64,000 nucleotides of DNA, from assembly GCA_963713495.1 (NCBI GenBank), contig CAVQLX010000006.1:59747-123746 (forward strand), read 5' to 3'. The first letter of the stretch is position 1; every line of letters starts with the position of its first letter. The notes below the pieces were generated by a model, which made no database searches, was not told the origin of the DNA, and saw nothing but the letters and a program-made list of their open reading frames with translations. Position numbers and translations under genes: made by a program. Positions 1,866-33,483 of the stretch are shown here, piece by piece. The stretch comes from an uncultured delta proteobacterium. Lineage in GTDB: Bacteria; Desulfobacterota; Binatia; DP-6.

Positions 1866-2903
1866 ATGGCAGCGGCACTGCACGAAGGACCTCGCTTACG
1901 TCGCCTGACCTCGTGTGCAGATAGGTGCTTTCGAAAACGGGCAATCGTCCTCCACGTCTATCACCCCACTGCCCTTTCCGTAAAGGGCGCAGCGCACAAC
2001 CGAGCGGGCGGTTACCTGGAGGGTCTCCCGGACGGAGCGCAGTGCGGGAACTTCTGCGAGAACAGCTCGTGCCAGGCCGGTGCGTGTGTGGGGAACCCGG
2101 GCATCCACCCGTGTGGATCGGCCGACCTGTGCGACCCGACCTCGACAACGCCGTGCAAGGAATGTGGAGACGGTACGCGGCAGCCATGGGAGCAGTGCGA
2201 CGACGGAAATACCGACGACGACGATGGGTGTACCTCGAGCTGCAAGTTCTCCTGTGATCCGCAGGATCCCGTGGCGTCGTGCGGCCAGGTGATGCTGCCA
2301 ACAGGAGCGCCCGATCCGTGCCAGCGGAGCGCGTGTCAGCCTGTCGACATCAGCCCGGCCATCGAGGCCGAGGGTTTCACCTGCACAACGATCGCCGAGT
2401 GCGACAGCTGTGTGAGCGACTCGGGATGTCTGCCACCGTCGGACACCTGCGAGAACGTGCACTGCGAAGCGAACAAGTGCGTGACCCGGAGCAAGGTCGA
2501 CTTCTCGCTCGCCACGTGTGCGTTCTCCGACCCTTTCCCGGGCGACGAGCTATCGACGGATGCACATGATTGCGCGCAGTTTGCGGCTGCGAACGAGAGC
2601 GCGTGCGGCCCGACGGGCTCCCTGAACAAGCCGCGCGCGCTCTGCAAGCTGTGGAAGCTCGAAGGAGCCGCGCGGAGTCTTCTCCAGAACTCGTGCAGCG
2701 CCGACGGCACGAAGCCGAAGGCCAGCGTCATGAAACGAATCGTCCGTCCGCTCAGACAGGCCATCTTCCAGGCCAACGCGCTGCGGACGCCGTTCAAGCC
2801 GAGGATCACGCAGGACTGCTCGGACGCCCTGATCCACCGCTTCGAGCGGATGCTGACGAACCTCCGCGGCGCCAAGACGTCTGCGTGGAGCTGCTCGTCC
2901 TGA
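1866..2903 (+). CDS. Cysteine-rich repeat protein (Myxococcus-type CGDG..C-DDGN..DGC repeat). Its C-terminus carries the shared helical C-terminal module described in the findings. No signal peptide is visible, so the N-terminus may be truncated or the start shifted.
   Basis: Motif CKECGDGTRQPWEQCDDGNTDDDDGCTSSCKF plus further Cys-rich segments. The tail ...NSCSADGTKPKASVMKRIVRPLRQAIF...ITQDCSDALIHRFERMLTNL aligns with the tails of the genes ending at 23524 and 54271. Confidence 0.45.
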   Translation: MAAALHEGPRLRRLTSCADRCFRKRAIVLHVYHPTALSVKGAAHNRAGGYLEGLPDGAQCGNFCENSSCQAGACVGNPGIHPCGSADLCDPTSTTPCKECGDGTRQPWEQCDDGNTDDDDGCTSSCKFSCDPQDPVASCGQVMLPTGAPDPCQRSACQPVDISPAIEAEGFTCTTIAECDSCVSDSGCLPPSDTCENVHCEANKCVTRSKVDFSLATCAFSDPFPGDELSTDAHDCAQFAAANESACGPTGSLNKPRALCKLWKLEGAARSLLQNSCSADGTKPKASVMKRIVRPLRQAIFQANALRTPFKPRITQDCSDALIHRFERMLTNLRGAKTSAWSCSS

Positions 2904-2959
2904 ATGCCCGCGCGCGAATCGTCGTGACGTAGCGCCCGAACCCGGGGCATCGAGGCAGC

Positions 2960-3427
2960 ATGCCGAAGATCGACGTGGCAGGGCTGCCCACGATGACGGG
3001 AACGACCTATCCGGCGCCGTTCGACGAGCCGTGCCGTGGACGCGAGTCCGTCCGGCTCGGGGTCGCTGCGGGTCTTACCCAGTTCGGCGTGAACCGGATC
3101 AAGCTACCGCCCGGCGTCTGGTCGAGTCAGCGCCATTGGCACGCGAAAGAGGACGAGTTCATCTACGTGATCGACGGCGAGGTGACGCTCATCGACGATG
3201 ACGGATCGGTCGTGCTGCGCCAGGGAGACGCGGCGGGCTTCCAGGCCGGCGTACAGGTCGGTCACCATCTCGTGAACCGGTCGGATCGCGACGCGGTGTT
3301 TCTCGTCGTCGGGAGCCGTGATGACGACGACTACGGCGAGTATTCGGACATCGACCTGCAGTTCGGTCCCGGCAGGTACTCCGGAAAGGGCAGCGGCTAC
3401 ACGCGGAAGGACGGCACCCCGTACTGA
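2960..3427 (+). CDS. Cupin-domain protein
   Basis: 155-aa ORF; the pattern WHAKEDEFIYVIDGEVTLIDDDGSVVLRQGDAAGFQAG is a typical cupin_2 beta-barrel signature. Confidence 0.6.
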   Translation: MPKIDVAGLPTMTGTTYPAPFDEPCRGRESVRLGVAAGLTQFGVNRIKLPPGVWSSQRHWHAKEDEFIYVIDGEVTLIDDDGSVVLRQGDAAGFQAGVQVGHHLVNRSDRDAVFLVVGSRDDDDYGEYSDIDLQFGPGRYSGKGSGYTRKDGTPY

Positions 3428-3465
3428 TCTTCTAGCGGCCGGCGCTCCTGTGCTAGACGGCCCGC

Positions 3466-5766
3466 ATGTCGAAGCCGCTCGTCTATCGCGACGGGGAGCC
3501 ATTCCCCGGCCGTGTCGCCGCATCCTTCCGCGACTCCGTTCCCGCCTGGCCGGTGGCTGCGCGCGCGTCCGCCGGTGCGCCCAACGTCGTCCTGATCGTG
3601 CTCGACGACGTCGGCTTCGCGCAGCTCGGTTGCTTCGGCTCCGACATCGACACGCCGCGCTTCGACCGTCTCGCCGCGGAAGGTCTGCGCTACCGGAGCT
3701 TCCACACCACGGCCATGTGCTCGCCGACGCGCGCCTGTCTCCTCAGCGGGCGGAATCATCACACCTGCGCCATGGGCGGCATCACGGACCTGTGCATGGG
3801 GTTCCCGGGCTACAACGGCCGCATCCCGAAGTCGTGCGGCTTCGTCTCCGAGGTGCTGCGCCAGGCGGGGTGGGCCACGCTCGCGATCGGCAAGTGGCAC
3901 CTCGCGCCCTCCGACGAGCAGCACGCCGCCGCGCCGCGGGACCGCTGGCCGCTCGGCCAGGGCTTCGAGCGCTACTACGGCTTTCTCGGCGGCGAGACCA
4001 ACCAGTTCGCTCCCGACCTGGTGTGCGACAACTCGTCGATCCGGTTGACGCCACCCGATGGCTACCACCTCACCGAGGACCTGGTGAACCAGGCCATCCA
4101 GCGCGTGACCGACGTCCGCGTCGCCGACCCCGACAAGCCGTTCTTCCTCTACCTGGCTCTCGGTGCGTGCCATGCCCCGCACCAGGCACCCCCGGAATGG
4201 ATCGAGCGCTATCGCGGGCGGTTCGCCGAGGGCTGGGACGTGTGGCGCGAACGGACGCTGGCGCGCCAGATCGCCTCCGGTGTCGTGCCACCCGGCACGA
4301 CGCTGTCCGCGCGTCCGTCGTGGGTGCAGGAGTGGGCGTCGCTGCCGGCGGAGGAGCGGCGCGTGTACGAGCGCATGATGGAGGTCTACGCCGGCTTCCT
4401 GTCGCACACGGACCATCACCTCGGGCGCCTTCTCGACTTCCTGGCGGCGAGCGGCGAGCTCGATCGCACGCTTCTCCTCGCGCTCAGCGACAACGGCGCC
4501 AGCGCGGAGGGCGGACCGCACGGGACGTTCAACGAGAACTTCATCTTCAACGGACTGCAGCACGACGTCGAGGCGACGCGTGCAATGCTCGACCAGCTGG
4601 GCAGCGTCCACACCTACGGGCACTACCCGTGGGGCTGGGCGCTGGCGGGGAACACGCCGTTCCGCCGCTGGAAGAGAGAGACGCACGAGGGTGGAATCGG
4701 CGATCCGCTCATCGTGCGCTGGCCCGCGACTGCCGATCGTGGCGCCGTGCGTTCGCAATACGTCCATGCCATCGACGTCGCGGCGACCATCCTCGACGTC
4801 ACCGGCACCGCGATGCCCGCGGTGCTGCACGGGGTGCCGCAGGAGCCGCTCGCCGGCCGCAGCTTCGCGGCCTCGCTCACCGACGCGGCCGCCCCCGAGC
4901 ACCGCGAGACGCAGTACTACGAGCAGTTCGCCTGCCGCGCGATCTACGACCGCGGCTGGAAGGCGGTGACGTACCACGCGATGCTGGACGGCCTGTACAC
5001 GAACGAGGACGACCCGGACCGGCCGTTCGCGGAGGATCGCTGGGAGCTGTACCACGTCGCGTCCGACCCCTCCGAGTCGCGCGACCTCGCGGCTGCCGAG
5101 CCGGAGAAGCTGCGCGCGCTCCAGGAGCTCTGGTGGAGCGAGGCGGGACGCTACGGTGTGCTGCCGCTGCAGTCGCGCCGGATGTTCGCCGTCGGCCGCC
5201 CTCATGCCGTGCGACCTCGCGAGCGCGTCGTGCTGCGACCGGGCGCCGCGCCGGTGCCCGAGGACCTGGCGCCGAACGTCAAGATGCGGCCGCACCGGAT
5301 CGTCGCCGACGTCGAGATCGGAGTCGGTGGCGCCGAGGGCGTGCTCGTCGCACAGGGCGGTCGCTTCGGGGGCTTCAGCCTCTACATGCACGGTGGGCGG
5401 CTCCACTACACGACCAACTTCGCGGGGATCGAGCGCACCACGGTGTCGAGCCCGCAACCGCTCGCGGCCGGCCGCCACCTCGTCGGCGTTGCGCTCGAGC
5501 CCGCCGGCGGCAACGGCATGCGCGCCGAGCTACTCATCGGAAGCGACGTCGTCGCCGCGGTCGAGGCGCCGCGCACCGCGCCGTTCCGCTTCGCCCTCGC
5601 CGGCGAGGGCCTGTGCTGCGGCTACGACGACGGCACCCCGGTGGCCGACGTCTACGAGTCGCCCTTCGCGTTCACCGGGGCGATCCACGAGGCGGTGATC
5701 GACGTATCGGGCACGCCGGTGGCCGATCTGGTGGCCGAGCTGCGACGTGCGTGGATGACCCAGTGA
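3466..5766 (+). CDS. Arylsulfatase (formylglycine-dependent sulfatase family)
   Basis: 766-aa ORF. The N-terminal block VVLIVLDDVGFAQLGCFGS...MCSPTRACLLSGRNHH contains the C-x-P-x-R FGly motif. Sulfatase-like similarity continues through the C-terminal domain. Confidence 0.85.
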   Translation: MSKPLVYRDGEPFPGRVAASFRDSVPAWPVAARASAGAPNVVLIVLDDVGFAQLGCFGSDIDTPRFDRLAAEGLRYRSFHTTAMCSPTRACLLSGRNHHTCAMGGITDLCMGFPGYNGRIPKSCGFVSEVLRQAGWATLAIGKWHLAPSDEQHAAAPRDRWPLGQGFERYYGFLGGETNQFAPDLVCDNSSIRLTPPDGYHLTEDLVNQAIQRVTDVRVADPDKPFFLYLALGACHAPHQAPPEWIERYRGRFAEGWDVWRERTLARQIASGVVPPGTTLSARPSWVQEWASLPAEERRVYERMMEVYAGFLSHTDHHLGRLLDFLAASGELDRTLLLALSDNGASAEGGPHGTFNENFIFNGLQHDVEATRAMLDQLGSVHTYGHYPWGWALAGNTPFRRWKRETHEGGIGDPLIVRWPATADRGAVRSQYVHAIDVAATILDVTGTAMPAVLHGVPQEPLAGRSFAASLTDAAAPEHRETQYYEQFACRAIYDRGWKAVTYHAMLDGLYTNEDDPDRPFAEDRWELYHVASDPSESRDLAAAEPEKLRALQELWWSEAGRYGVLPLQSRRMFAVGRPHAVRPRERVVLRPGAAPVPEDLAPNVKMRPHRIVADVEIGVGGAEGVLVAQGGRFGGFSLYMHGGRLHYTTNFAGIERTTVSSPQPLAAGRHLVGVALEPAGGNGMRAELLIGSDVVAAVEAPRTAPFRFALAGEGLCCGYDDGTPVADVYESPFAFTGAIHEAVIDVSGTPVADLVAELRRAWMTQ

Positions 5767-21738: not shown

Positions 21739-21840
21739 CCAGGCCTCTGGTAGTCGCCGCGGCATGCGGTCCGTCTCACCCTTGGCGGCACGCGTGCGGC
21801 TGCCTATGCTGCGCGCGTGTTTCCCGGAGGCCTTCGCGCG

Positions 21841-23316
21841 ATGGCGTACTGCCGGCCGGACAGCGTGCGCCCGGGCGACGAGGTGGCGCTGCATCTGTCC
21901 GCCGCCACGCCGACTGTCTCGGTGGAAGTCGTGCGCGACGGCCTCGAGTCCGAGGTGGTGTGGCGGGGAGCTGGCGTCGCGGCACCGGCGTTGCCGATTC
22001 CGGACGACGCTCCCGAGGCGGGATGCGGATGGCCGGCGGCGATCACCATTCCCGTGGACGCATCCTGGCGCAGCGGTCTCTACCTCGTGCGCCTCGTGCC
22101 CGCTGACATGACCGAGGCCGAGTCCCCGACGGCCTTCTTCGTCGTGCGCGCCGTGACCCCGTCGGCCGACGCCATCGTCCTCGTCCTCGCGACGACGACG
22201 TGGAACGCCTACAACGACGTCGGTGGCCGCAATTTCTACACCGGCGCGGTCGAGCTCTCGTTCGAGCGTCCTCTCTCCGTCGGCATGCTGGCGAAGCCGG
22301 CGGGGAGCGGCGAACGCGTGGCCACCATCGACGCGGGGACCGGTGCCGCGGCGTTCATGGAGTACACCGCGCGTCACGGCCTCGCGATGTGGCACGGCAT
22401 GGCGGGCTGGGCGGCGTGGGAGCGACGCTTCCTCCGCTGGGCCGAGGCCGCCGGCTATCGCATCGACGTCGCCACCAGCCTCGATCTCGATCGCGATCCG
22501 GATCTGCTCGTGCCCTATCGACTGCACGTGAGTGTCGGCCACGACGAATACTGGAGTGCCGGCATGCGCGACGCCGTCGAGCGCTTCGTCGCGCGAGGCG
22601 GTCACGTCGTGTTCTTCTCGGGCAACACCTGCTACTGGCAGATCCGCCTCGAGGACACGCGCGAGACCTGCTTCAAGCATCGCTTCCGCGACGACCCCGT
22701 CCACGGCACCGACCGTCGCGCGTCGACCACGACCATCTGGTCGGATCCCCAATTGGCGCGGCCCGAGAACCAGCTCACCGGGGTGTCCTTCACACGTGGC
22801 GGATACGCGCGGACGGCGCGGAGCGTGCCGGCAGGAAGCGGCGGCTACGAGGTCCATCGACCGGATCACTGGGTGTTCGGCGGCACCGGGCTACGCCGGG
22901 GTGATCAGCTGGGCGCTGCGCCGGTCGTCGTCGGTTACGAATGTGACGGCTGCGAGCTCGCGCTCGTCGATGGGCTCCCCGTGGCGACCGGCACCGACGG
23001 GACACCGCGGACGTTCGAGATTCTCGCCACCGCGCCGGCCACGCCGTTCGACCGGCGCACGACCCCGCTGCCCCTCGCGCCGGGTGCGGAGTACGAGCTC
23101 GAGTTCCATGCCCGCACCCTCCTTGGCGACGACGGCCCCGCGAGCTGCGATCGCCTACGCCATGGACACGCCGTGCTCGGCACCTACGTGGGCGGCGGGA
23201 CGGTGGTGACGACGGGGTGCACCGACTGGGCGTACGGCCTCGACGATCCCGCCGTATCGCGCGTCACGCGCAACGTCCTCGATCGTCTCGGCCGCGGACG
23301 TGGCAATGCTGGATGA
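21841..23316 (+). CDS. N,N-dimethylformamidase beta-subunit-like family protein (large conserved hypothetical)
   Basis: GGAGG lies 9 nt upstream of the ATG at 21841. Motifs LVLATTTWNAYNDVGG and FFSGNTCYWQIR are typical of this family. Confidence 0.5.
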   Translation: MAYCRPDSVRPGDEVALHLSAATPTVSVEVVRDGLESEVVWRGAGVAAPALPIPDDAPEAGCGWPAAITIPVDASWRSGLYLVRLVPADMTEAESPTAFFVVRAVTPSADAIVLVLATTTWNAYNDVGGRNFYTGAVELSFERPLSVGMLAKPAGSGERVATIDAGTGAAAFMEYTARHGLAMWHGMAGWAAWERRFLRWAEAAGYRIDVATSLDLDRDPDLLVPYRLHVSVGHDEYWSAGMRDAVERFVARGGHVVFFSGNTCYWQIRLEDTRETCFKHRFRDDPVHGTDRRASTTTIWSDPQLARPENQLTGVSFTRGGYARTARSVPAGSGGYEVHRPDHWVFGGTGLRRGDQLGAAPVVVGYECDGCELALVDGLPVATGTDGTPRTFEILATAPATPFDRRTTPLPLAPGAEYELEFHARTLLGDDGPASCDRLRHGHAVLGTYVGGGTVVTTGCTDWAYGLDDPAVSRVTRNVLDRLGRGRGNAG

Positions 23317-23523: not shown

Positions 23524-24907
23524 CTAGAGCTGCTTCCTGAGCGTCTTCAGGTCGTCGAGAATCGGCCCGGCGTCCGCCAGCAGCGCCGCGCGGGTGTCCG
23601 CGGGGATGTTCTTGCGCGAGCGCAGCGACCGCAGGCGATGATCGAAGTCGATCAGCTTGCGGGCCGCTTTCTTGAGGGCGTTGCTGGCGGGCTTCTTCCG
23701 GCCAGCCGTGACGGAGTCATCGGCCGCCTGTGTCTTCGACCGTGCGGCCGCCACGCCGTTGCGCAGCGCGGTCTTGGTGGTGCCCAGGTCCGACGCCGCG
23801 TCGACCGTCGCCAGCAGCGCTTCCAGCCGGCAGATGATCGACGCGAAGGTGGCCGCCCGGACGCCGCACCCCGATGCCAGCGTCGTGGTCGTCGTGGTGC
23901 TGGTCGGGTGTCGTCGTGGTGGTGATCGTGGTCGTCGTGCTCGCGGTCGTCGATGGAGGCGGGAAGCCCGCGCCGCCGATCTGGACGATCGAGTTTGCTG
24001 GATCGCCGCGGAAGGTGGCGACGAAGAAGTCGTTGGTCCTGGGATCGAACTCGAGTCCCCATGGTCCGACGCCGAGTCCCGAGGCGAAGCGGCTGTCGGT
24101 GGGATTGGCAGTGCCGAGCGTCGGCAGTCCACTCGTCTTGTCCACCGGCAGACCGGTGGCGGCGTCGATGGTGAGCAGACGCACCTCGCCGAAGTTGTAG
24201 TTGACGTACATCAGGTTGCCCGCGAGCGGACCGGACGGAACGTACTGGATGGCCCCGGTCCCCTGCTGCGGCAGGGTCACGAACAGGGTCACGGCGCCGG
24301 GGGTGAAGATGCCCGCACCGGCGGACGTGAGCGGCACCTCGTAGAGGTTCGCACCTTGCCACGAGCTGACCTGCATCATCCCGAAGCCGGTTCCGGGATC
24401 GGTGCGGTGCGGGGAGAAGGTCATGCCCGCGACCGACGACGGAACGCCGACGGTCCCCATGTTGAACTGCGTCTCTGCGCCCGTGACCCCGCCCGGTCGC
24501 TCGCCGAGGCGATTGGACGACCAGTACGTGTAGAAGAGCGTCCCGCCCGGGCCGATCTCGAACCCGGCATCGAGACCGGGCGTGGCGGCCGTTCCGTCGA
24601 AGACCTTGGTCACCGCGGCGGCGGGACCGAGGCCCGTCACGTCGCCGGTCAGCGGGTCGCGTGTCACCGGAACTCCGTAGAGCGCGCTCGTCGGCGTTTC
24701 CGACGCGCCGACCACGTAGAGCAGGTTGCCATCCGCCGAGAAGAGGAGGCCGGCGAGTGGCCCCGGGATCCCGAGCGACGTCGCGCTGAAGGTGTTCTTC
24801 ACCTGGAAGTTGCCGGGGTCGTCCAGGGTGACGACGGCGAGGGCGGGGGCTGCGGCGGCGCAAATGGCGAAGGACAGGACCGCGCGGAGGGGGTGTGCAA
24901 TCGACAT
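23524..24907 (-). CDS. Secreted beta-rich protein, Thr-rich linker, then the shared helical C-terminal module (one frameshift in the linker)
   Basis: Signal peptide MSIAHPLRAVLSFAICAAAAPALA. The linker PPPSTTASTTTTITTTTTP is followed, after a frame change, by TTTTTTLASGCGVRAATFASIICRLEALLATV...GRKKPASNALKKAARKLIDFDHRLRSL...LKTLRKQL*. Confidence 0.6.
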
Positions 24908-25096
24908 CGTGTCTCCTCGTTCTGTCTGAGGGCCTGTGGGGGTATGCAGTACGCCAGAGCAGACGGCGAGGACAAGACAAATGAGGAGGCGTCGTGTCGC
25001 CGGGGCGACCCGGAGCCTCCCGGATCTCCACCTTCAGTATGAGTGCCGGGGCGGCCGCACTAGACTTTCCATCGAGAATCGCGTCTATCGAGCGAC

Positions 25097-27136
25097 ATGG
25101 ATCGCCGCGCGTTCCTGCGCTTGACCGGTGCCGTCCTCGCCACCGCGGCGTTTCCCCCGGTGGTGCGCAAGGCGCTCGCGATCCCCGCCTCGTCGCGCCA
25201 CCGGTCGATCATGGACGTCGAGCACGTGGTCATCCTGATGCAGGAGAACCGCGCCTTCGACCACTACTTCGGCACGCTCCCGGGCGTGCGCGGGTTCGGC
25301 GACCGCATCACGATCCCGCTCCCGGGCGGGCGGTCGGTGTGGGAGCAGCAGGAGAGCGACGGGACGACGGTGCTGCCGTACCACCTCGACAGCGCCACCG
25401 GGAACGCGCAGCGCGTCCTCGGGACGCCGCACTTCTGGGCGGATGCGCACGGGGCCTGGAACAAGGGAGCCACCGGGCGATGGCCGGCATACAAGTTCCC
25501 GTGGTCGATGGGGCACTACGGCGAGCAGGAGGTGGCGTTCCAGTTCGCACTCGCCCGCGCGTTCACGGTCTGCGACGCGTACTTCTGCTCGATTCACTCG
25601 AGCACCAATCCGAACCGGCTGTTCATGTTCACGGGCACGAACGATCCGACGGGGGCGGGCGGCGGCCCCGTCATCACCAACGATCACGACTCGATCGGCC
25701 CGCCGGCAGAGGGATACGTCTGGACGACCTATCCCGAGCGGCTGGAGGCCGCGGGAATCGGCTGGAAGGTGTATCAGGACCTCGCCGACAACTTCAGCGA
25801 CAACTCGCTGGCCGGCTTCCGGCAATACCGCGAGCCGTACTTCTCCGGAGCAGCGTCGCCGCTGGTGCAGAAGGGTCTGTCGACGACGCTCACCAGCCCC
25901 ACGATGGACGAGCTTCGCGCCGACGTTCTCGCGGACACCCTTCCCGAGGTCTCCTGGATCATCGCCCCCGCCGCCTACTCCGAGCATGCCGGGCCGTCGA
26001 GCCCGATCCAGGGCGCCTGGTACACGCAGCAGGTGCTCGAGGCGCTCATCGCCGACCCCGCCGTGTGGAGCAAGACGGTGCTACTCGTCATGTTCGACGA
26101 GAACGACGGCTTCTTCGACCACGTGCCGCCGCCCTGTGCGCCGTCTCTCAACCCTGACGGAACGCTCGCCGGGGCCAGCACGGTCGTGGATGTCACCGAG
26201 CGCCACACCGACGGAAACGTCTACGGACCGGGACCGCGCGTTCCGATGATCGTCGTCTCGCCCTGGAGTCGCGGTGGCTGGGTGAACTCCGAGGCATTCG
26301 ATCACACGTCGCTCATCCGCTTCCTGGAGGCGCGCTTCGGCGTCATGGAGCCGAACATCAGCGCCTGGAGGCGCGCGGTGCTGGGAGACCTGACGTCGGC
26401 GTTCAATTTCCGCCGGCCCAACCACAAGCCGTTCCCCGTGCTCCCGAGCCTGACGCAGGGCGAAGCTTCGTCCATCCGCGCCGCGCAGGAGCAGCTGGGG
26501 CAGGTGGCGATCCCGTTCGGCGCCGCCGGTGCGGTCCCCGTGCAGCCCGCAGGCGTCCGGCCGTCACGCGCCCTGCCGTACGTGCTCCACGTGGACGCCG
26601 TCGTCGAGGCCGACGCGGAGCAGGTGCGCCTCCGCTTCCGGAACGTCGGCAAAGCTGGCGTCGTCTACCATGTCTACGATGGCGTGCGTCTCGATGCCGT
26701 CCCCCACCGCTACACGGTCGAGGCCGGGATGTCGCTCGAGGACACGTGGAGCGCCGGGCCAGACGTCGGCGGACGGTACGACCTCTGGGTCTTCGGGCCG
26801 AACGGCTTCCTGCGCCACGTGGCCGGTACCGCGAGCGGAGCCGATCCCGTCCGTCCCGAGGTCGATGTCGAGTACGCTCGCGCGCTGGAGATCACGCTGT
26901 CGAACGATGGCACCACGAGCTGCACCTTCACCCTGACGGCGAACGCCTATCGCCGCGGCTCCGCCTCGGTGCGGGTCGCGGCAGGCGGCCGCCGCACGCG
27001 GAGGTGGCCGCTCCGCCGGGGCTGGTACGACGTCACGATCACGTGCGACGGCGACGGCACGTTCGCGCGTCGTCTCGCGGGTCACGTCGAGAACGGCCGG
27101 CCGTCGGTGACGGACCCGGCGATGGGGCTCGGCTGA
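25097..27136 (+). CDS. Tat-secreted phosphocholine-specific phospholipase C (non-haemolytic PLC/acid phosphatase family)
   Basis: MDRRAFLRLTGAVLATAAFPP (Tat motif); HVVILMQENRAFDHYFGTL ... VLLVMFDENDGFFDHV; C-terminal tandem DUF756-like repeats. Confidence 0.85.
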   Translation: MDRRAFLRLTGAVLATAAFPPVVRKALAIPASSRHRSIMDVEHVVILMQENRAFDHYFGTLPGVRGFGDRITIPLPGGRSVWEQQESDGTTVLPYHLDSATGNAQRVLGTPHFWADAHGAWNKGATGRWPAYKFPWSMGHYGEQEVAFQFALARAFTVCDAYFCSIHSSTNPNRLFMFTGTNDPTGAGGGPVITNDHDSIGPPAEGYVWTTYPERLEAAGIGWKVYQDLADNFSDNSLAGFRQYREPYFSGAASPLVQKGLSTTLTSPTMDELRADVLADTLPEVSWIIAPAAYSEHAGPSSPIQGAWYTQQVLEALIADPAVWSKTVLLVMFDENDGFFDHVPPPCAPSLNPDGTLAGASTVVDVTERHTDGNVYGPGPRVPMIVVSPWSRGGWVNSEAFDHTSLIRFLEARFGVMEPNISAWRRAVLGDLTSAFNFRRPNHKPFPVLPSLTQGEASSIRAAQEQLGQVAIPFGAAGAVPVQPAGVRPSRALPYVLHVDAVVEADAEQVRLRFRNVGKAGVVYHVYDGVRLDAVPHRYTVEAGMSLEDTWSAGPDVGGRYDLWVFGPNGFLRHVAGTASGADPVRPEVDVEYARALEITLSNDGTTSCTFTLTANAYRRGSASVRVAAGGRRTRRWPLRRGWYDVTITCDGDGTFARRLAGHVENGRPSVTDPAMGLG

Positions 27137-27182
27137 AAACTGTTTGCCTTGCACGGCCTGCGTCGGCTAGGTCGACGACGCG

Positions 27183-28202
27183 ATGAGGGCTCCCGGCTGG
27201 TTGCTGAGTCTCGTGTGCGTGTTGGGACTGCGCACGCTTGCGACCGCACAGGGGATGCCCGACCTCCGTCTCGACACCGACTTGCTGGCCTCGTCGGTGA
27301 ACTACGACCTCCAGGTCTTCGACCCGCAAAGCTGCGAGCTCCAGGCCGCGGACCTCTGCGTGGCGGGGCCCGGCGTGCGGAAGCTGCTGCGCTTCAGCGT
27401 GTTCGCGATCAACCAGGGCACGGCCGATCTCGTCGTCGGGACGCCGGACCCGTCGATCCTGCTTCCGGACGGCTCGCCCGAGTGGGTCTATAGCTCGTGC
27501 CACAAGCACTTCCACTTCCAGACCTTCGCGCGCTACGAGCTCCGCCCCCGCGGTTCCGCGAACGCCGTGCTGCTGGGCCAGAAGCGGTCGTTCTGCATCG
27601 AGGACACGAAGAGGGCCTCCGACAGCGCACCGGACACGCCCCGATTCGGCTGCAATCCGAACGGCCTCAACGTCCAGGGCGTGCAGGTCGGCTGGGGCGA
27701 TCTCTACGCCAGCAGTCTTCCCTGCCAGTGGATCGACATCACCGACCTGCCGACGACCGGCGACTTCGATCTGTGTGTCACCATCAACACCGCAGGCCTG
27801 CTCCCCGAGATCGACGCCAGCAACGACCGCGGCTGCGTCCCGGTAACGATCGCCGAGCCCGCCGATACGACGCTGCCCAGGCTGGCCGTGCTGGCGCCGC
27901 ACAAGAAGAAGGTTCGCGCCGGCAAGCGCCTGAAGATCGCCTGGCGCAAGCACGTCAAGGGCAAGTTCCGCTTCATCGAGGTCCTGTTCTCGCGCGATCA
28001 CGGCGAGACCTGGGAATACGTGACCGCGACGCCGGAGACGAAGCGCAATGCATTCGTCTGGACGGTCCCCAGCGATGCCGTCACCGACGAGGCGCGGTTG
28101 CGTGTCGTGCTGTGGGCGGAGGCGGACGGAGTCCCGGACACGGACGCGGGCGCGTTCGTGCACGCCACCCGCGACAGCAAGCCGTTCCGTATCATTCCCT
28201 GA
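27183..28202 (+). CDS. Lysyl-oxidase (LOX) family copper amine oxidase homologue, secreted, with a C-terminal Ig-like domain
   Basis: Signal peptide MRAPGWLLSLVCVLGLRTLATAQG. SSCHKHFHFQTFARYEL matches the LOX copper-binding H-x-H-x-H segment and LTQ region. Confidence 0.7.
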   Translation: MRAPGWLLSLVCVLGLRTLATAQGMPDLRLDTDLLASSVNYDLQVFDPQSCELQAADLCVAGPGVRKLLRFSVFAINQGTADLVVGTPDPSILLPDGSPEWVYSSCHKHFHFQTFARYELRPRGSANAVLLGQKRSFCIEDTKRASDSAPDTPRFGCNPNGLNVQGVQVGWGDLYASSLPCQWIDITDLPTTGDFDLCVTINTAGLLPEIDASNDRGCVPVTIAEPADTTLPRLAVLAPHKKKVRAGKRLKIAWRKHVKGKFRFIEVLFSRDHGETWEYVTATPETKRNAFVWTVPSDAVTDEARLRVVLWAEADGVPDTDAGAFVHATRDSKPFRIIP

Positions 28203-28220
28203 GGCCCGAGGAGGACGAAC

Positions 28221-28778
28221 ATGCGACCCCGACTGATCACGCTGCTGGTCCTGCTCGCCACGTGTACCGGAGCAGCCGGGGCTCGCGGTCCCAAGTTGAT
28301 CCTGCCGCTCGTCCGCGCTCAGTGCCCCGGCGCGGTCCCGTGTCTCCCCGCGTTCGCGTTCCGGACCGGCGCGGCGCAGCTGACGTCCGCGAAGGAGCCG
28401 GCTCCGAGCTGTCCGAAGAGCGGCAAGCCGTCGGAAACGCCGGGCGGGACCGTCCAGATGGCCGGCGTGACGAGGGACGGCGCGCCGTACACCGGATCGC
28501 TCGCGGTCGAGGTCACGAACCAGACCACGTTCGGCTCGGACGGCGGGGACTGTCCGCTGAATGGCCTGCAGATCGAGACGCCCACGCTGCTCGGCACCCT
28601 CGATTGCAAGGCGGGTCGCTGCAACGGAAAGCTGCTGCCGTCGGCGTGCCTGCCTCGCGAGTGCATCGATGCGCCGATCACCACGGAGTTCCGCCTGCTC
28701 GAGGTCCTGGACGTTCCGACCCTGGAGGGCGGCAAGGCGATCGCGCGACCGGGCCTGTTCGTTGCGCCGGGAAAGTAA
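28221..28778 (+). CDS. Cysteine-rich lipoprotein (hypothetical)
   Basis: Lipobox LLATC in MRPRLITLLVLLATCTG; 10 Cys in the mature part; 18 bp downstream of the LOX gene. Confidence 0.55.
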   Translation: MRPRLITLLVLLATCTGAAGARGPKLILPLVRAQCPGAVPCLPAFAFRTGAAQLTSAKEPAPSCPKSGKPSETPGGTVQMAGVTRDGAPYTGSLAVEVTNQTTFGSDGGDCPLNGLQIETPTLLGTLDCKAGRCNGKLLPSACLPRECIDAPITTEFRLLEVLDVPTLEGGKAIARPGLFVAPGK

Positions 28779-28868
28779 CACACCGACGAATCACTTGACC
28801 CGAATGGCGCGCCCGATGGTACTCTCTGGCCGCCTCGGCCCGGTGCCGATGCTGAACGGGGGAAATCG

Positions 28869-30297
28869 ATGATGCGCGGCTTGCTGCTCCTGGTCTTCCT
28901 TGTCCTGCCTGCACTCCCGGTCGTTCACGCGGCCGATCAGACCGTCCGTGGGAGCACGCTGATCGTCAAGGACCCCGGCACGGACGCCAAACGCAAGATC
29001 ACCGTCAAGGCGAAGGAAGCCGCGAGCGACAACACGCTGGTCGGCGACCCGACCGTGAGCGGCGCGAGCATCACGATCACCGCCACTGGCGCGACGCCGA
29101 CCAGCCAGACGTTCACGCTGCCGGCGGGCACGAGCGCCATGACCCAGAAGCCATTCTGGAGCGGCGATGCGGTGAAGGGGTTCAAGTACAAGGACGGGAA
29201 GGGCGAGAACGGCGCCGTGAAGACGGCCCAGATCAAGCTCAAGGGCGGGACCTTCCAGATCAAGGTCTCCATCAACGGCAAGGGCGGCCCGGTGGACGTG
29301 GTGCCGCCGAATCCCGGCTCGGCCGGCTGCGCGTTCCTCGCCATCGGTGGGGGAGACACGTACAGCGTCCAGTTCGCGCCCGGTCAGGTGACGAACAAGG
29401 GGGCGGGTCTCTTCAAGGTCGCGAAGCCGAGCGGCGAGGGGTCGTGCGCGCCGACCACGACCACGATCACCAGCACGTCCACGACGACGACCACCCTGGA
29501 CCTGCCATTCATCCCGCCGCCCGGCGACGCGCCGCTGCGCTACCGTGACGCGGTGTTCGCCGCGGTGACCACCACCAGCAACATCGTCTACGGAAGCGCG
29601 ATGAACATCGCGGGTCAGACCATCACGCTACAGTTCGATTTCTACGAGCCCACCGGCGACTCGGTGACACAGCGTCCCGCCATCATCTGGGTGCACGGCG
29701 GCTCGTTCTCCTCGGGCGACAAGACCTCGCCAGAGCTGGTGGACGAGGCGAACACGTTCGCGAAGGAAGGGTACGTGAACGCGTCGATCAACTATCGCCT
29801 GGAACCCGGAGGATGCACCGCCTCCGCGCCGACCGCGAACTGCATCACCGCGATCCAGGAGGCGCTGGCGGATGCACAGACCGCGGTGCGCTTCCTGCGC
29901 ACGAACGCGGCGACCTACGGCATCGACCCGGGTCGCATCGCGATCGGCGGCTCGAGTGCCGGCGCGATCACGGCGCTCCACGTGGGGTTCCGCTCCAGCG
30001 AGGATCCGAGCGCGGCGGTCGGTGCCGCGGTGTCCCTCTCGGGCGCGTCTCTGCTCGTCACGATCGACGGTGGCGACGCGCCGAGCCTGCTGTTCCACGG
30101 CACGGCGGACACCGATCGTGCCGTATCAGTGGGCGGTGAATACCTACAACGCGGCGCTCGCCGCAGGCCTCGACTCGTTCCTCACGTCCTGGGCCGGCGC
30201 AGGGCACGTTCCGTACGTGCAGCACCGTACCGAGATTCTCGATCAGACCACGAACTTCCTGTACTGGGAGCTCGATCTGGCGAACGCGGCGCACTGA
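28869..30297 (+). CDS. Secreted alpha/beta-hydrolase-fold esterase/lipase with an N-terminal Lys/Gly-rich beta-domain and a Thr-rich linker (one frameshift near 30115)
   Basis: Signal peptide MMRGLLLLVFLVLPALPVVHA. N-domain ...FKYKDGKGENGAVKTAQIKLKGGTFQIKVSINGKGG; linker TTTTITSTSTTTTT. Esterase blocks HGGSFSSGD and GGSSAGA, with HGTAD / PYVQH in the shifted frame. Confidence 0.65.
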
Positions 30298-30356
30298 CCG
30301 AGACGGGCGGGGCGCCGGCCGACAGGCCGCGCCTCGCCCGTGAGCGACGCGGACGG

Positions 30357-32913
30357 TCATCCCGCGATGCGCGCGAGAACGCGCTTCGGCTCGCCGACGT
30401 TCATCTCGCCCGACCGGATGCGCACGAGTCCATCGTGGGTGGGGACCCACCCTGGCCGGGCGTCGAGCTCCTCCTCCGTCGCCCGCCGGACGAGAGGCCG
30501 GCCGTTCAGCGTGACGGCGGTCACCTCCGCGCCGCACGTGGCGAGCTCGATCACGGTATCCCGCCGGCCGGGGGCGCCCGCGTACGACCCGCGCACCGGC
30601 TCGATCGTGATCGCGATGCCGTCGTGCGTCCGTCGCTGCCGGACCGTGGTGGTGCGTACGGCGCCGCCGAGGTACGCCGTGGTCTCGCCGTCGTCCTCGT
30701 AGAGCGTGAAGCGGCTCCTGCTGCTCGACGAGGCCGGGTCGCCGGCATAGACGCGGACCGTCAGCTCGTCGCGAGGGGACCCGCCCCGACGTTTGCCGAG
30801 CGCGTTCAACGTGTCGTCGTCGACCGCCGCCTCGGGGATGATGGCGCCCGCGCGCGCGAAGAGCGGCACCGCGAAGAGCCCGCCGATCCGCGTCGGCACG
30901 CCGCGCACCCACTCCCCCGCACTGCGCGTGCAGGTGTTGGCGTGGAAGTCGATCCACGTGCCCGCCGGAAGGTACACGTCGCGCGACGCCTGGCCGTATG
31001 CGCTCACCGTCGCCACGAGCAGGTCGCGCCCGAGCAGCTTCTCGTCTGCCATCCGGCGCACCTCGGGATCGTCCGGGTAGGAGAGCGGAAGCGGCGGCAC
31101 AAGCGCGTCGCCGTAGCGATGCGCCCGGTGGGCCAGGGAGTACAGGTATGGGATCAGGCGGTAGCGCAGGCGGAGGTTCTCCCTGTTGCTCGCGACCTCG
31201 CCGATGCGATCGGGCGCCGTCTCGTTGCAGTTGCAGAGGTTCTGGGTGTGGGGGCGGAGCGGCACGTCGAGGAGGGCGGCGTTGGCGAACCAGACCGTGT
31301 ACATCTCGTTCAGGTCGCCATCGAGTGCGCTCCGCCAGTAGCCGCCGACGTCCGCTCCGAAGTAGTCGATTCCCGAGAAGGCCATGTGCATCTGCACGTC
31401 GAGCTGCGTCGCGAGGCTCGAGAGGTTCGAGCCGATGTCCCCCGACCACATGCCGGCACCGAAGCGCTGGATGCCGGCGGTCCCCGAGCGCGACAGCATG
31501 AACGGTCGTTGCGTGTCGTGGTGGCGCGCGTACCCGCGCGCGATGCTCGCGAGCCACTCCAGGTTGTACGCGTCGTGCACGTCCTGATGGGCGCGCAGCC
31601 CGAGCCGGGGGAACCCGTGGTAGCGGGCGTCGGGAGAGAAGTCCTCCGGCTCCCCGAGATCGGCCCAGTGACCGAGGATCCCCATCTCGACGAGGGGCTG
31701 GCGCTTCCGATCGTGCCAGTAGTTTCCCGCGGCGGGGTTGGTCCAGTCGAGCATGCTGCCGCTTCCCCACCACGAGGCGACGCGCACCGGGCCGCATCCG
31801 GCACACGCCTGCGGCAGATAGCCACGCGACGCGAGCGCCGCGAAATCGGGCCGGCTGGCATCGACGTACGGCTCCTCGATCAGCATCAGGCCGACGCCCT
31901 CGTTCCTGCGCAGTCGCGCGATCTCGCGCCTGGGACGCGGGAACGCGGTCGTATCCCACCTGAGCGCTCCCATGTGCGACGGCCGGCGGAACACGCCGCC
32001 GAACCACTGCAGATCGAGCATGAAGCCGTCGACCGGAAAGCGATTCGCACGCAGCGTGCGTAGCTTGTCCTCGAGCTCCGCCCAGCCGTCGAACCCGAAC
32101 TCCGACACCCAGAGACCGAACGCTTTCTTCGGCGGCACGGGCGGTCGGCCCACGAGACGCATGTAGCGGCGACGGAGCGCCGTGGGCGCCGCCCCGGCGA
32201 GCAGATACCCGCGGATGGCGTCGCCCGCCATCGTCACCCGCCAGGGATCGCCGGTGAGATCCCACGTCTGCGCGTCGAGCTGGTCGACGAACAGGGCGTA
32301 GCTCTCGCCCGCGCCGCCGAGGGCGTACAGGATCGGAAACTGCGCGTTCTCGGTGAAGCCGCCGTTGAACGGGGTGAGCGCGTTGCCCGCCTCGGTGCCG
32401 GGCGCGACGATCTTGCCGAGCAGGTCGCCGTTGGCGGTGCCGGGTGTCAGGAAGTGCTCCCCGAGGCCGTAGACGTGCTGCGTATCCGCCCGCGCCACCG
32501 CGAGGACGTTACGACCACCGCCGACGGCGGCCGGGCAGAGCGTGGTGACCGGGGAGGGCGGCTCGCGCGTCCGATCCGCCACGTCGAGGCACAGCGTCGT
32601 GGGATCGATCCGGAGGCGGAGGATCCCGGTGTCCAACGTGTCGGATCGGACGAGGCGCTTCGCTCCGCTGCGCCCCGGGTGCAGGACCATCGGCGTCGTG
32701 GGAATCCACGCGTCGCGGAGACGGCGGTTCGCCTCCGGGCGCGAACTCGAAGTGGATCACGCCGTCGTCGAGGACCTCGACGGCGACGTGCGCGTCGCGG
32801 GAGGCGACCGCGAGCACCGGCACGTCGTGTGCGGCCCCGGCGAGCGACGCGAGCCACGCCGGTGCGGAGACGATGAGAGCCAGCGCCGCGATCAGGGCGC
32901 GGTCGGTTGGCAT
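30357..32913 (-). CDS. Glycoside hydrolase family 31 (alpha-glucosidase/alpha-xylosidase-like), secreted, with one frameshift near 32700
   Basis: Signal peptide MPTDRALIAALALIVSAPAWLASLAGA in the 32913 frame. GH31 blocks DGFMLDLQWF, GVGLMLIEEPYV and GMWSGDIGSN. Confidence 0.8.
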
Positions 32914-33006: not shown

Positions 33007-33483
33007 ATGTGCTACGCGCCGCCCATGTCGCGCCCACGCCAGCTCCTCTGCATCGCCTACGCGGCCATCGCGGTGCTCGCGCTGGTCGGCACGTGGACAC
33101 AGAACGTGGCATATTTTCGACCCGACGAGGGACCGCTGCGGGGCTTCCTGATGGCCACGGCCCGGTTCTGGCCCGCGACGCTGGCGACGCCGGCGAGCAC
33201 CTCCATCACGGTGGACCTGGCGTTCTTCCTCGTCGCCGCGGCGGTGCTCATGGTCATCGAGGCGCGTCGCCTCGCGATCCGCTGGGTGTGGCTCTACATC
33301 CTGCTCGGCCTGCTCGTCGCGATCAGCGTCACGTTCCCGCTCTTCCTCATTGCGCGCGAGCGCCGGCTCTCCGCGCTCGGCAGGCCGTCCGACGTCGTCG
33401 GCCTCTCCGGCGCCGATCTCGCGGCCCTCGTTGGATTGGGTGGCATGACCGCGGCCATCACGGCCTGGACGCTCGGCCGGTAG
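33007..33483 (+). CDS. Small integral membrane protein (4 predicted TM helices), hypothetical
   Basis: 158-aa ORF with four hydrophobic stretches (IAYAAIAVLALVG, LAFFLVAAAVLMVI, VWLYILLGLLVAISVTFPLFLIA, AALVGLGGMTAAITAW). Confidence 0.5.
   Translation: MCYAPPMSRPRQLLCIAYAAIAVLALVGTWTQNVAYFRPDEGPLRGFLMATARFWPATLATPASTSITVDLAFFLVAAAVLMVIEARRLAIRWVWLYILLGLLVAISVTFPLFLIARERRLSALGRPSDVVGLSGADLAALVGLGGMTAAITAWTLGR

Follow-up and report, generated by a model that had tools for sequence, protein, structure and literature searches.

We analyzed a stretch of 64,000 nucleotides (nt) of DNA from an uncultured delta proteobacterium of the Binatia (contig CAVQLX010000006.1, positions 59,747 to 123,746), referred to here as the window, which has a G+C content of about 70%. 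Within it lie four plus-strand genes encoding, in this order, a phosphocholine-specific phospholipase C of 679 amino acids (aa) exported via the twin-arginine translocation (Tat) pathway (positions 25097 to 27136), a lysyl oxidase (LOX) of 339 aa (27183 to 28202), a cysteine-rich exported protein of 185 aa belonging to an unannotated family (28221 to 28778), which we call the partner, and an esterase with a broken reading frame (28869 to 30297). The spacers between these genes, read from the sequence, measure 46, 18, and 90 nt, which confirms the shared direction and short gaps reported in the initial annotation of the locus. That annotation went further and viewed all four genes as a possible operon for extracellular attack or remodeling. 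Our comparison with related loci gives a different picture: we are confident that the conserved unit is the pair formed by LOX and its partner and not the four-gene cluster.

Judged by its sequence, the second gene encodes a true member of the LOX family. The Pfam model PF01186 matches with an E-value of 1.2e−25 and 90.8 bits, against a cut-off of 20.4, over profile positions 50 to 186 of 204, and residues 24 to 215 align with human LOXL2 (PDB accession number 5ZE3) with an E-value of 3.8e−18 in phmmer; the protein has the fold of a LOX catalytic domain. In LOXL2, copper is bound by H626, H628, and H630, and the lysine tyrosylquinone (LTQ) cofactor is formed from K653 and Y689 (numbering from PMC10532419). 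The copper ligands align with H107, H109, and H111 of the window protein, where the sequence C-H-R-H-Y-H of LOXL2 reads C-H-K-H-F-H, and the LTQ precursors align with K134 (within GQKRSFCIED) and Y175 (within GWGDLY). None of the five residues varies among the 17 family members aligned, which reach down to 44% identity. Neither of the outcomes that the initial annotation had named as refuting its LOX assignment, a lack of a significant Lysyl_oxidase match or a lack of the LTQ-forming and copper-binding residues, was observed. Because the copper-binding histidines and the LTQ precursors align with those of LOXL2 and remain invariant in the relatives, the enzyme is probably catalytically competent.

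The architecture of the protein is simple. A signal peptide (aa 1 to 23, ending in ATA before QG) is followed directly by an acidic catalytic domain (aa ~24 to 225, pI of ~4.6). In the alignment, the mature protein begins about 2 residues ahead of the point at which the catalytic domain of LOXL2 starts, and hence there is no N-terminal propeptide. The C-terminal Ig-like domain mentioned in the initial annotation is present; it is an FN3/Ig-like domain (aa ~226 to 339) and is strongly basic, with a pI of 10 to 12 in all 17 relatives. This domain carries an Asp-box-like motif, SRDHGETW (S-x-D-x-G-x-T-W; aa 262 to 269, positions 27966 to 27989), and S270, D272, G274, and T276 are invariant across the relatives. 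The statement that bacteria rarely have LOX homologues goes too far. An earlier survey documents them in at least five bacterial phyla (PMC4448552), and we found at least 204 relatives of the window LOX, nearly all of them 320 to 350 aa long and, where a source name is given, labeled Candidatus Binatia.

The partner belongs to a narrow family that has no annotation and no convincing known fold. An exhaustive profile search recovered 46 clusters among 1.84 billion representative proteins. The window protein has no match in Pfam, NCBIfam, PADLOC, or the sequences in the PDB (including a search with a sequence profile), none of the 60 family members matches a Pfam family, and a Foldseek comparison of its model with the PDB returned nothing significant. 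The family alignment shows eight conserved cysteines, an invariant E156, and a PxPTCP motif. The AlphaFold2 model (mean predicted local distance difference test score of 84.8) is all-β, and we take the protein to be an exported, nonenzymatic β-sandwich that would be held together by about four disulfides. The earlier description as a cysteine-rich lipoprotein is correct in its first part only. The supposed lipobox cysteine (Cys15) occurs in the window protein alone and within an atypical L-A-T-C, and the homologues end their signal peptide with AxA and carry no cysteine there; because this cysteine is not conserved in the homologues examined, we rejected the lipoprotein reading.

Could the partner be a copper-delivering protein? 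The Greek-key fold of SOD1, YojM, and domain 2 of CCS served as a lead only and does not indicate membership, as the metal-ligand histidines are not conserved and there is neither Foldseek support nor sequence similarity. A role as a chaperone that supplies copper to the active site of LOX, in the manner of the SOD-like domain 2 of CCS, is the least probable of the alternatives considered in this work, because no metal-ligand residues are conserved in the partner.

The partner domain has distant relatives that form the C-terminal module after DUF11 and long Pro/Thr linkers (PT-linker surface proteins) or that are duplicated internally in tandem; the proteins showing these distant settings are P0229, P0232, P0233, P0235, P0215, and P0226. 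Arrays of three 199-aa paralogues (L032 and L033) have no LOX gene among their called neighbors. These settings are the behavior of a structural or surface module.

Evidence for a LOX-partner unit comes from the gene neighborhoods. A LOX-seeded scan of species-representative genomes yielded 22 loci (10 Binatia-type genomes and 12 non-Binatia loci), in which the partner was sought with tblastn and a profile hidden Markov model, and the neighborhood sample comprised twelve distinct relatives' loci with flanks of 3 to 8 kb and 21 metagenome contigs. Of the 10 Binatia-type genomes, 9 encode a partner homologue directly 3′ of LOX, and so does one further contig (L030). The partner-seeded search gave the reciprocal result: LOX is located directly 5′ of the partner in all 18 informative metagenome contigs, the remaining 3 of the 21 being cut at the contig edge. 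The gene tables of three relatives list a 185- to 200-aa gene without a Pfam match right after LOX, and neither a phospholipase C nor an esterase. The spacers between the two genes are ~0 to 22 nt in the relatives, and the adjacency is reciprocal, immediate, and on the same strand across divergent relatives, over which the identities of LOX and partner fall in step (about 79/81, 74/73, 51/49, and 46/44%). In the window, the 18-nt spacer contains a Shine-Dalgarno-like GAGGAGG (positions 28208 to 28214, plus strand), read from the sequence, 6 nt before the ATG of the partner. We infer from this arrangement that the two genes may be cotranscribed, and the partner is probably translationally coupled to LOX.

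The pairing is a feature of the Binatia-type loci. The partner is absent from the 12 non-Binatia LOX loci (Myxococcales, Verrucomicrobia, and others), where the LOX domain is part of proteins of 309 to 1,962 aa with a different architecture. In Verrucomicrobia the domain is located at or near the C terminus of proteins of 1,556 to 1,962 aa (L021, 2306 to 6976; L023, 1428 to 7316), and the LOX proteins of Myxococcales have 309 to 670 aa and Cys-rich N-terminal regions; L018 to L022 are among these non-Binatia loci. Within the Binatia, a more distant subclade (L002, L010, L012, L014, L015, and L016) shares extended synteny around the pair. A gene for a short-chain dehydrogenase/reductase (SDR) lies directly upstream in five of the six, and all six have a convergent gene for a cytochrome P450 and a gene for an APH-type kinase on the downstream side.

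What, then, of the phospholipase C and the esterase? The first gene encodes what the initial annotation had called it, a Tat phospholipase C: it scores 881.8 bits with TIGR03396 (cut-off of 580.25 at the equivalog level), matches Pfam Phosphoesterase and PLipase_C_C, and begins with the twin-arginine motif MDRRAFLRL (RRAFL), read from the sequence. It is reasonable to ask whether such an enzyme could form, with LOX, the Cys-rich protein, and the esterase, one operon that serves as an attack or remodeling toolkit. All four genes point in one direction and are spaced by 46, 18, and 90 nt, each of the products has an export signal, a near-identical strain also has the esterase gene next to the pair, and a promoter/terminator scan of positions 24800 to 30500 called no terminator-like site between the genes, a result that neither supports nor excludes read-through. 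The relatives argue strongly against this idea. None of the related LOX loci examined has a phospholipase C homologue in its flanks. The esterase adjoins the pair only in the near-identical strain (L029). In L034, whose partner still shares 84% identity with the window protein, the downstream esterase is already missing, and in the window itself the esterase frame is broken. Among the closest relatives the flanks vary and the pair stays intact: a two-component system adjoins it in one, EutBC in another, and the phospholipase C and esterase in the window. L030, with a LOX 79% identical to that of the window, has convergent genes for the ethanolamine ammonia-lyase subunits EutC and EutB (2364 to 4408) after the pair, an arrangement seen once. 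Because only LOX and its partner are conserved in the relatives, the toolkit reading is not supported and we consider it very improbable. We found no evidence for the proposed predatory or lytic lifestyle. LOX sits among exported hydrolases in the window genome, and we regard its neighbors, phospholipase C and esterase, as incidental in this strain and not part of the system.

The fourth gene had been described as an esterase with a novel N-terminal domain, which holds for the two parts of the protein and not for its frame. The esterase domain matches Pfam BD-FAE, COesterase, and Abhydrolase_3 as well as esterases in the PDB. It is preceded by an unannotated, Lys-rich N-terminal region of ~215 aa, which has no Pfam match, and by a Thr-rich linker. 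However, no single frame extends to position 30297. Alignment with the near-identical contig L029 and the translation of that contig revealed a single extra A at position 30115 (plus strand), which shifts the frame after HGTADT and turns HGTADTVVPYQW into HGTADTDRAVS. The insertion parts the Ser (GSSAG) and Asp (HGTAD) of the α/β-hydrolase domain from the His (GAGHVPY), which is now in the +1 frame, and beyond it the G+C content at third codon positions (GC3) decreases in the original frame and increases in the +1 frame. Hence, Ser, Asp, and His do not share a frame in the window. In L029, which encodes a partner protein 99% identical to that of the window, the frame is intact and runs uninterrupted past this site to the end of the contig. 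The mechanical open reading frame (ORF) of the shifted esterase continues to position 32063, across a convergent GH31 gene.

A second apparent frameshift lies upstream, in a minus-strand gene for an exported protein of ~460 aa (23524 to 24907). Here the GC3 signal switches from the frame of a 396-aa ORF to that of a 202-aa ORF, which encodes a helical, Cys-containing C-terminal domain, and the break is located in a Thr-rich linker at approximately 23900 to 23930. In a related metagenome-assembled genome (MAG), the LOX match on contig L010 (6001 to 7013) is split between two frames, and the 578-aa "SDR+LOX" database product from this contig (P0015) is probably a frameshift or gene-calling artifact and not a real fusion. 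Two frameshifts within 6.5 kb, together with the frameshifted LOX in the related MAG, suggest that consensus errors of the assemblies are at least as likely as true pseudogenes.

Why would a secreted lysyl oxidase be kept next to a small protein without enzyme features? The amino acid composition of the locus provides a hint. In the other genes of the window lysine is scarce (~1.7% Lys versus 9.2% Arg), with a ratio of Lys to the sum of Lys and Arg of ~0.16; the phospholipase C, although exported, has 1.2% Lys. In 60 partner homologues the median of this ratio is 0.57, versus 0.28 for the LOX catalytic domain, and five basic columns of the partner alignment favor Lys (62 to 70%) over Arg. This lysine bias and the structural or surface-module settings of the distant partner-domain relatives both count in favor of the partner being a protein substrate of LOX or a scaffold for its reaction. 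There is a precedent for such a role, as a prokaryotic LOX is active on Lys-containing polypeptides (PMC6452851). The substrate or scaffold role is the likeliest of the readings considered here, but we hold it only tentatively, as an idea that is plausible and yet falls short of an even chance.

We hypothesize that the reaction could proceed as follows. LOX would be exported by the Sec pathway and would process its own K134 and Y175 into LTQ, with copper held by H107, H109, and H111. The mature enzyme would then oxidize lysine ε-amino groups to aldehydes, releasing H2O2 and NH3, and its basic C-terminal domain might dock it onto anionic surfaces. Its preferred target or scaffold would be the coexpressed, Lys-biased partner, possibly along with other Lys-rich exported modules. 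The aldehydes could condense to form covalent cross-links in the envelope or the extracellular matrix, and proteins could in this way become part of the envelope or biofilm matrix or be immobilized in it. One such additional target might be the N-terminal domain of the adjacent esterase (18 Lys versus 2 Arg). Taken together, the cassette would be a bacterial protein cross-linking system and a prokaryotic equivalent of the matrix maturation that LOX brings about in animals, a possibility that we regard as rather doubtful at present. Among the likely genes scored across the window, lysine is densest in the C-terminal domain of LOX and the N-terminal domain of the esterase, and the latter is foremost (aa ~22 to 195, positions 28932 to 29450), with 14 Lys per 100 aa; this Lys-dense domain adjoins the lysyl oxidase cassette.

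Several observations weigh against a substrate role of the partner. No lysine column of the partner alignment is invariant, which means that no one lysine stands out as the target. The partner's rate of evolution is as low as that of LOX, which fits a binding subunit equally well. In addition, the LOX of L015 is intact and its surroundings (SDR-LOX-P450) are syntenic, but the adjacent partner has been lost. The first two of these points lead to the main rival explanation, in which the partner is not a substrate and instead acts as an accessory, either a latency factor acting in trans that keeps the propeptide-less LOX inactive in the periplasm or a chaperone that aids its folding there. Other LOXs, the archaeal enzyme included, have been described with an autoinhibitory N-terminal region that the window enzyme does not have, and the partner, which is modeled as a compact, disulfide-stabilized β domain, could be compared to the small β-barrel inhibitors that are cotranscribed with secreted proteases. 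The tight 1:1 coupling of the genes and their matched divergence fit an accessory as well as they fit a substrate. However, L015 keeps its LOX without an adjacent partner, and an accessory role explains neither the preference for Lys over Arg across the partner family nor the distant partner-domain relatives that occur as modules of surface proteins without any LOX. We judge an accessory function to be unlikely, although it deserves to be taken seriously.

The partner could also be peripheral to catalysis altogether. LOX would then be an exported amine oxidase of broad specificity, used for scavenging nitrogen from free primary amines or for producing H2O2 against competitors. The characterized archaeal LOX acts on a wide range of primary amines, with a native role that has been called cryptic (PMC6452851), and in two genomes the pair has neighbors related to amines or lipid head groups, namely the phospholipase C in the window and EutBC in L030. 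These neighbors are not conserved, though, and a free-acting amine oxidase leaves the strict linkage of LOX and partner and the basic, docking-type C-terminal domain unexplained. We consider a broad-specificity oxidase improbable, more so than an accessory partner.

The surroundings of the four genes contain a gene for an N,N-dimethylformamidase-beta-like protein (DMFA2_C; 21817 to 23316, plus strand), the GH31 glycosidase gene (30357 to 32690, minus strand), which is convergent on the esterase gene, and a gene for a DUF2834 membrane protein (33007 to 33483, plus strand); none of the three recurs near LOX in the relatives. Scanning the entire window with Rfam and for tRNAs gave no matches, and PADLOC matched none of the four proteins to a defense system.

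Bacterial and archaeal LOXs have been known since 2015; the bacterial homologues are established (PMC4448552), and one archaeal enzyme has been characterized (PMC6452851). The native function of bacterial and archaeal LOX is still called enigmatic or cryptic. In this situation, a LOX subfamily that is nearly always encoded together with one unannotated exported protein offers a concrete candidate for a substrate or partner. A cross-linked partner would mean that LOX-type matrix chemistry exists outside eukaryotes, and a partner acting as an inhibitor or chaperone would represent a new mode of LOX control. The pairing is thus a practical handle on a niche question and less a surprise in kind.

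How does this cassette compare with known systems? Compared with human LOXL2 and the animal LOX family, the window LOX has neither SRCR domains nor a propeptide, and its catalytic domain directly follows the signal peptide; in turn, it adds a basic C-terminal FN3/Ig-like domain and a dedicated partner gene. The animal substrates, collagen and elastin, do not apply to the window enzyme. The LodA/LodB system of Marinomonas, a secreted lysine ε-oxidase with a quinone cofactor and a tightly linked second gene, presumably resembles the LOX-partner pair in its layout. However, LodA belongs to a different enzyme family and has a cysteine tryptophylquinone cofactor, and LodB is a flavoprotein needed for the formation of this cofactor, whereas the window partner is a small, disulfide-rich β protein without enzyme features.

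The closest characterized counterpart is HTU-LOX of the archaeon Haloterrigena turkmenica, which like the window LOX is prokaryotic and has a signal peptide and the conserved copper histidines and LTQ residues (PMC6452851). HTU-LOX is active and sensitive to β-aminopropionitrile (PMC6452851); activity of the Binatia enzyme is a prediction from its sequence. Moreover, HTU-LOX has an N-terminal autoinhibitory stretch, which the Binatia enzyme lacks, whereas the latter has the C-terminal domain and the partner; the abstract and discussion of the archaeal study mention no partner gene (PMC6452851). The bacterial homologues described by Grau-Bové et al. 2015 (PMC4448552) have mostly simple architectures and no known function, and the accessible part of that work neither includes the Binatia among the phyla it names nor describes a conserved neighbor. 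In the literature searched, we found no paper that combines lysyl oxidase with Binatia or describes a conserved LOX partner gene. Hence, the window LOX is a new member of a known family, and its combination of a catalytic domain, a basic FN3-like domain, and a dedicated partner gene is, as far as we can tell, a variant that has not been described before.

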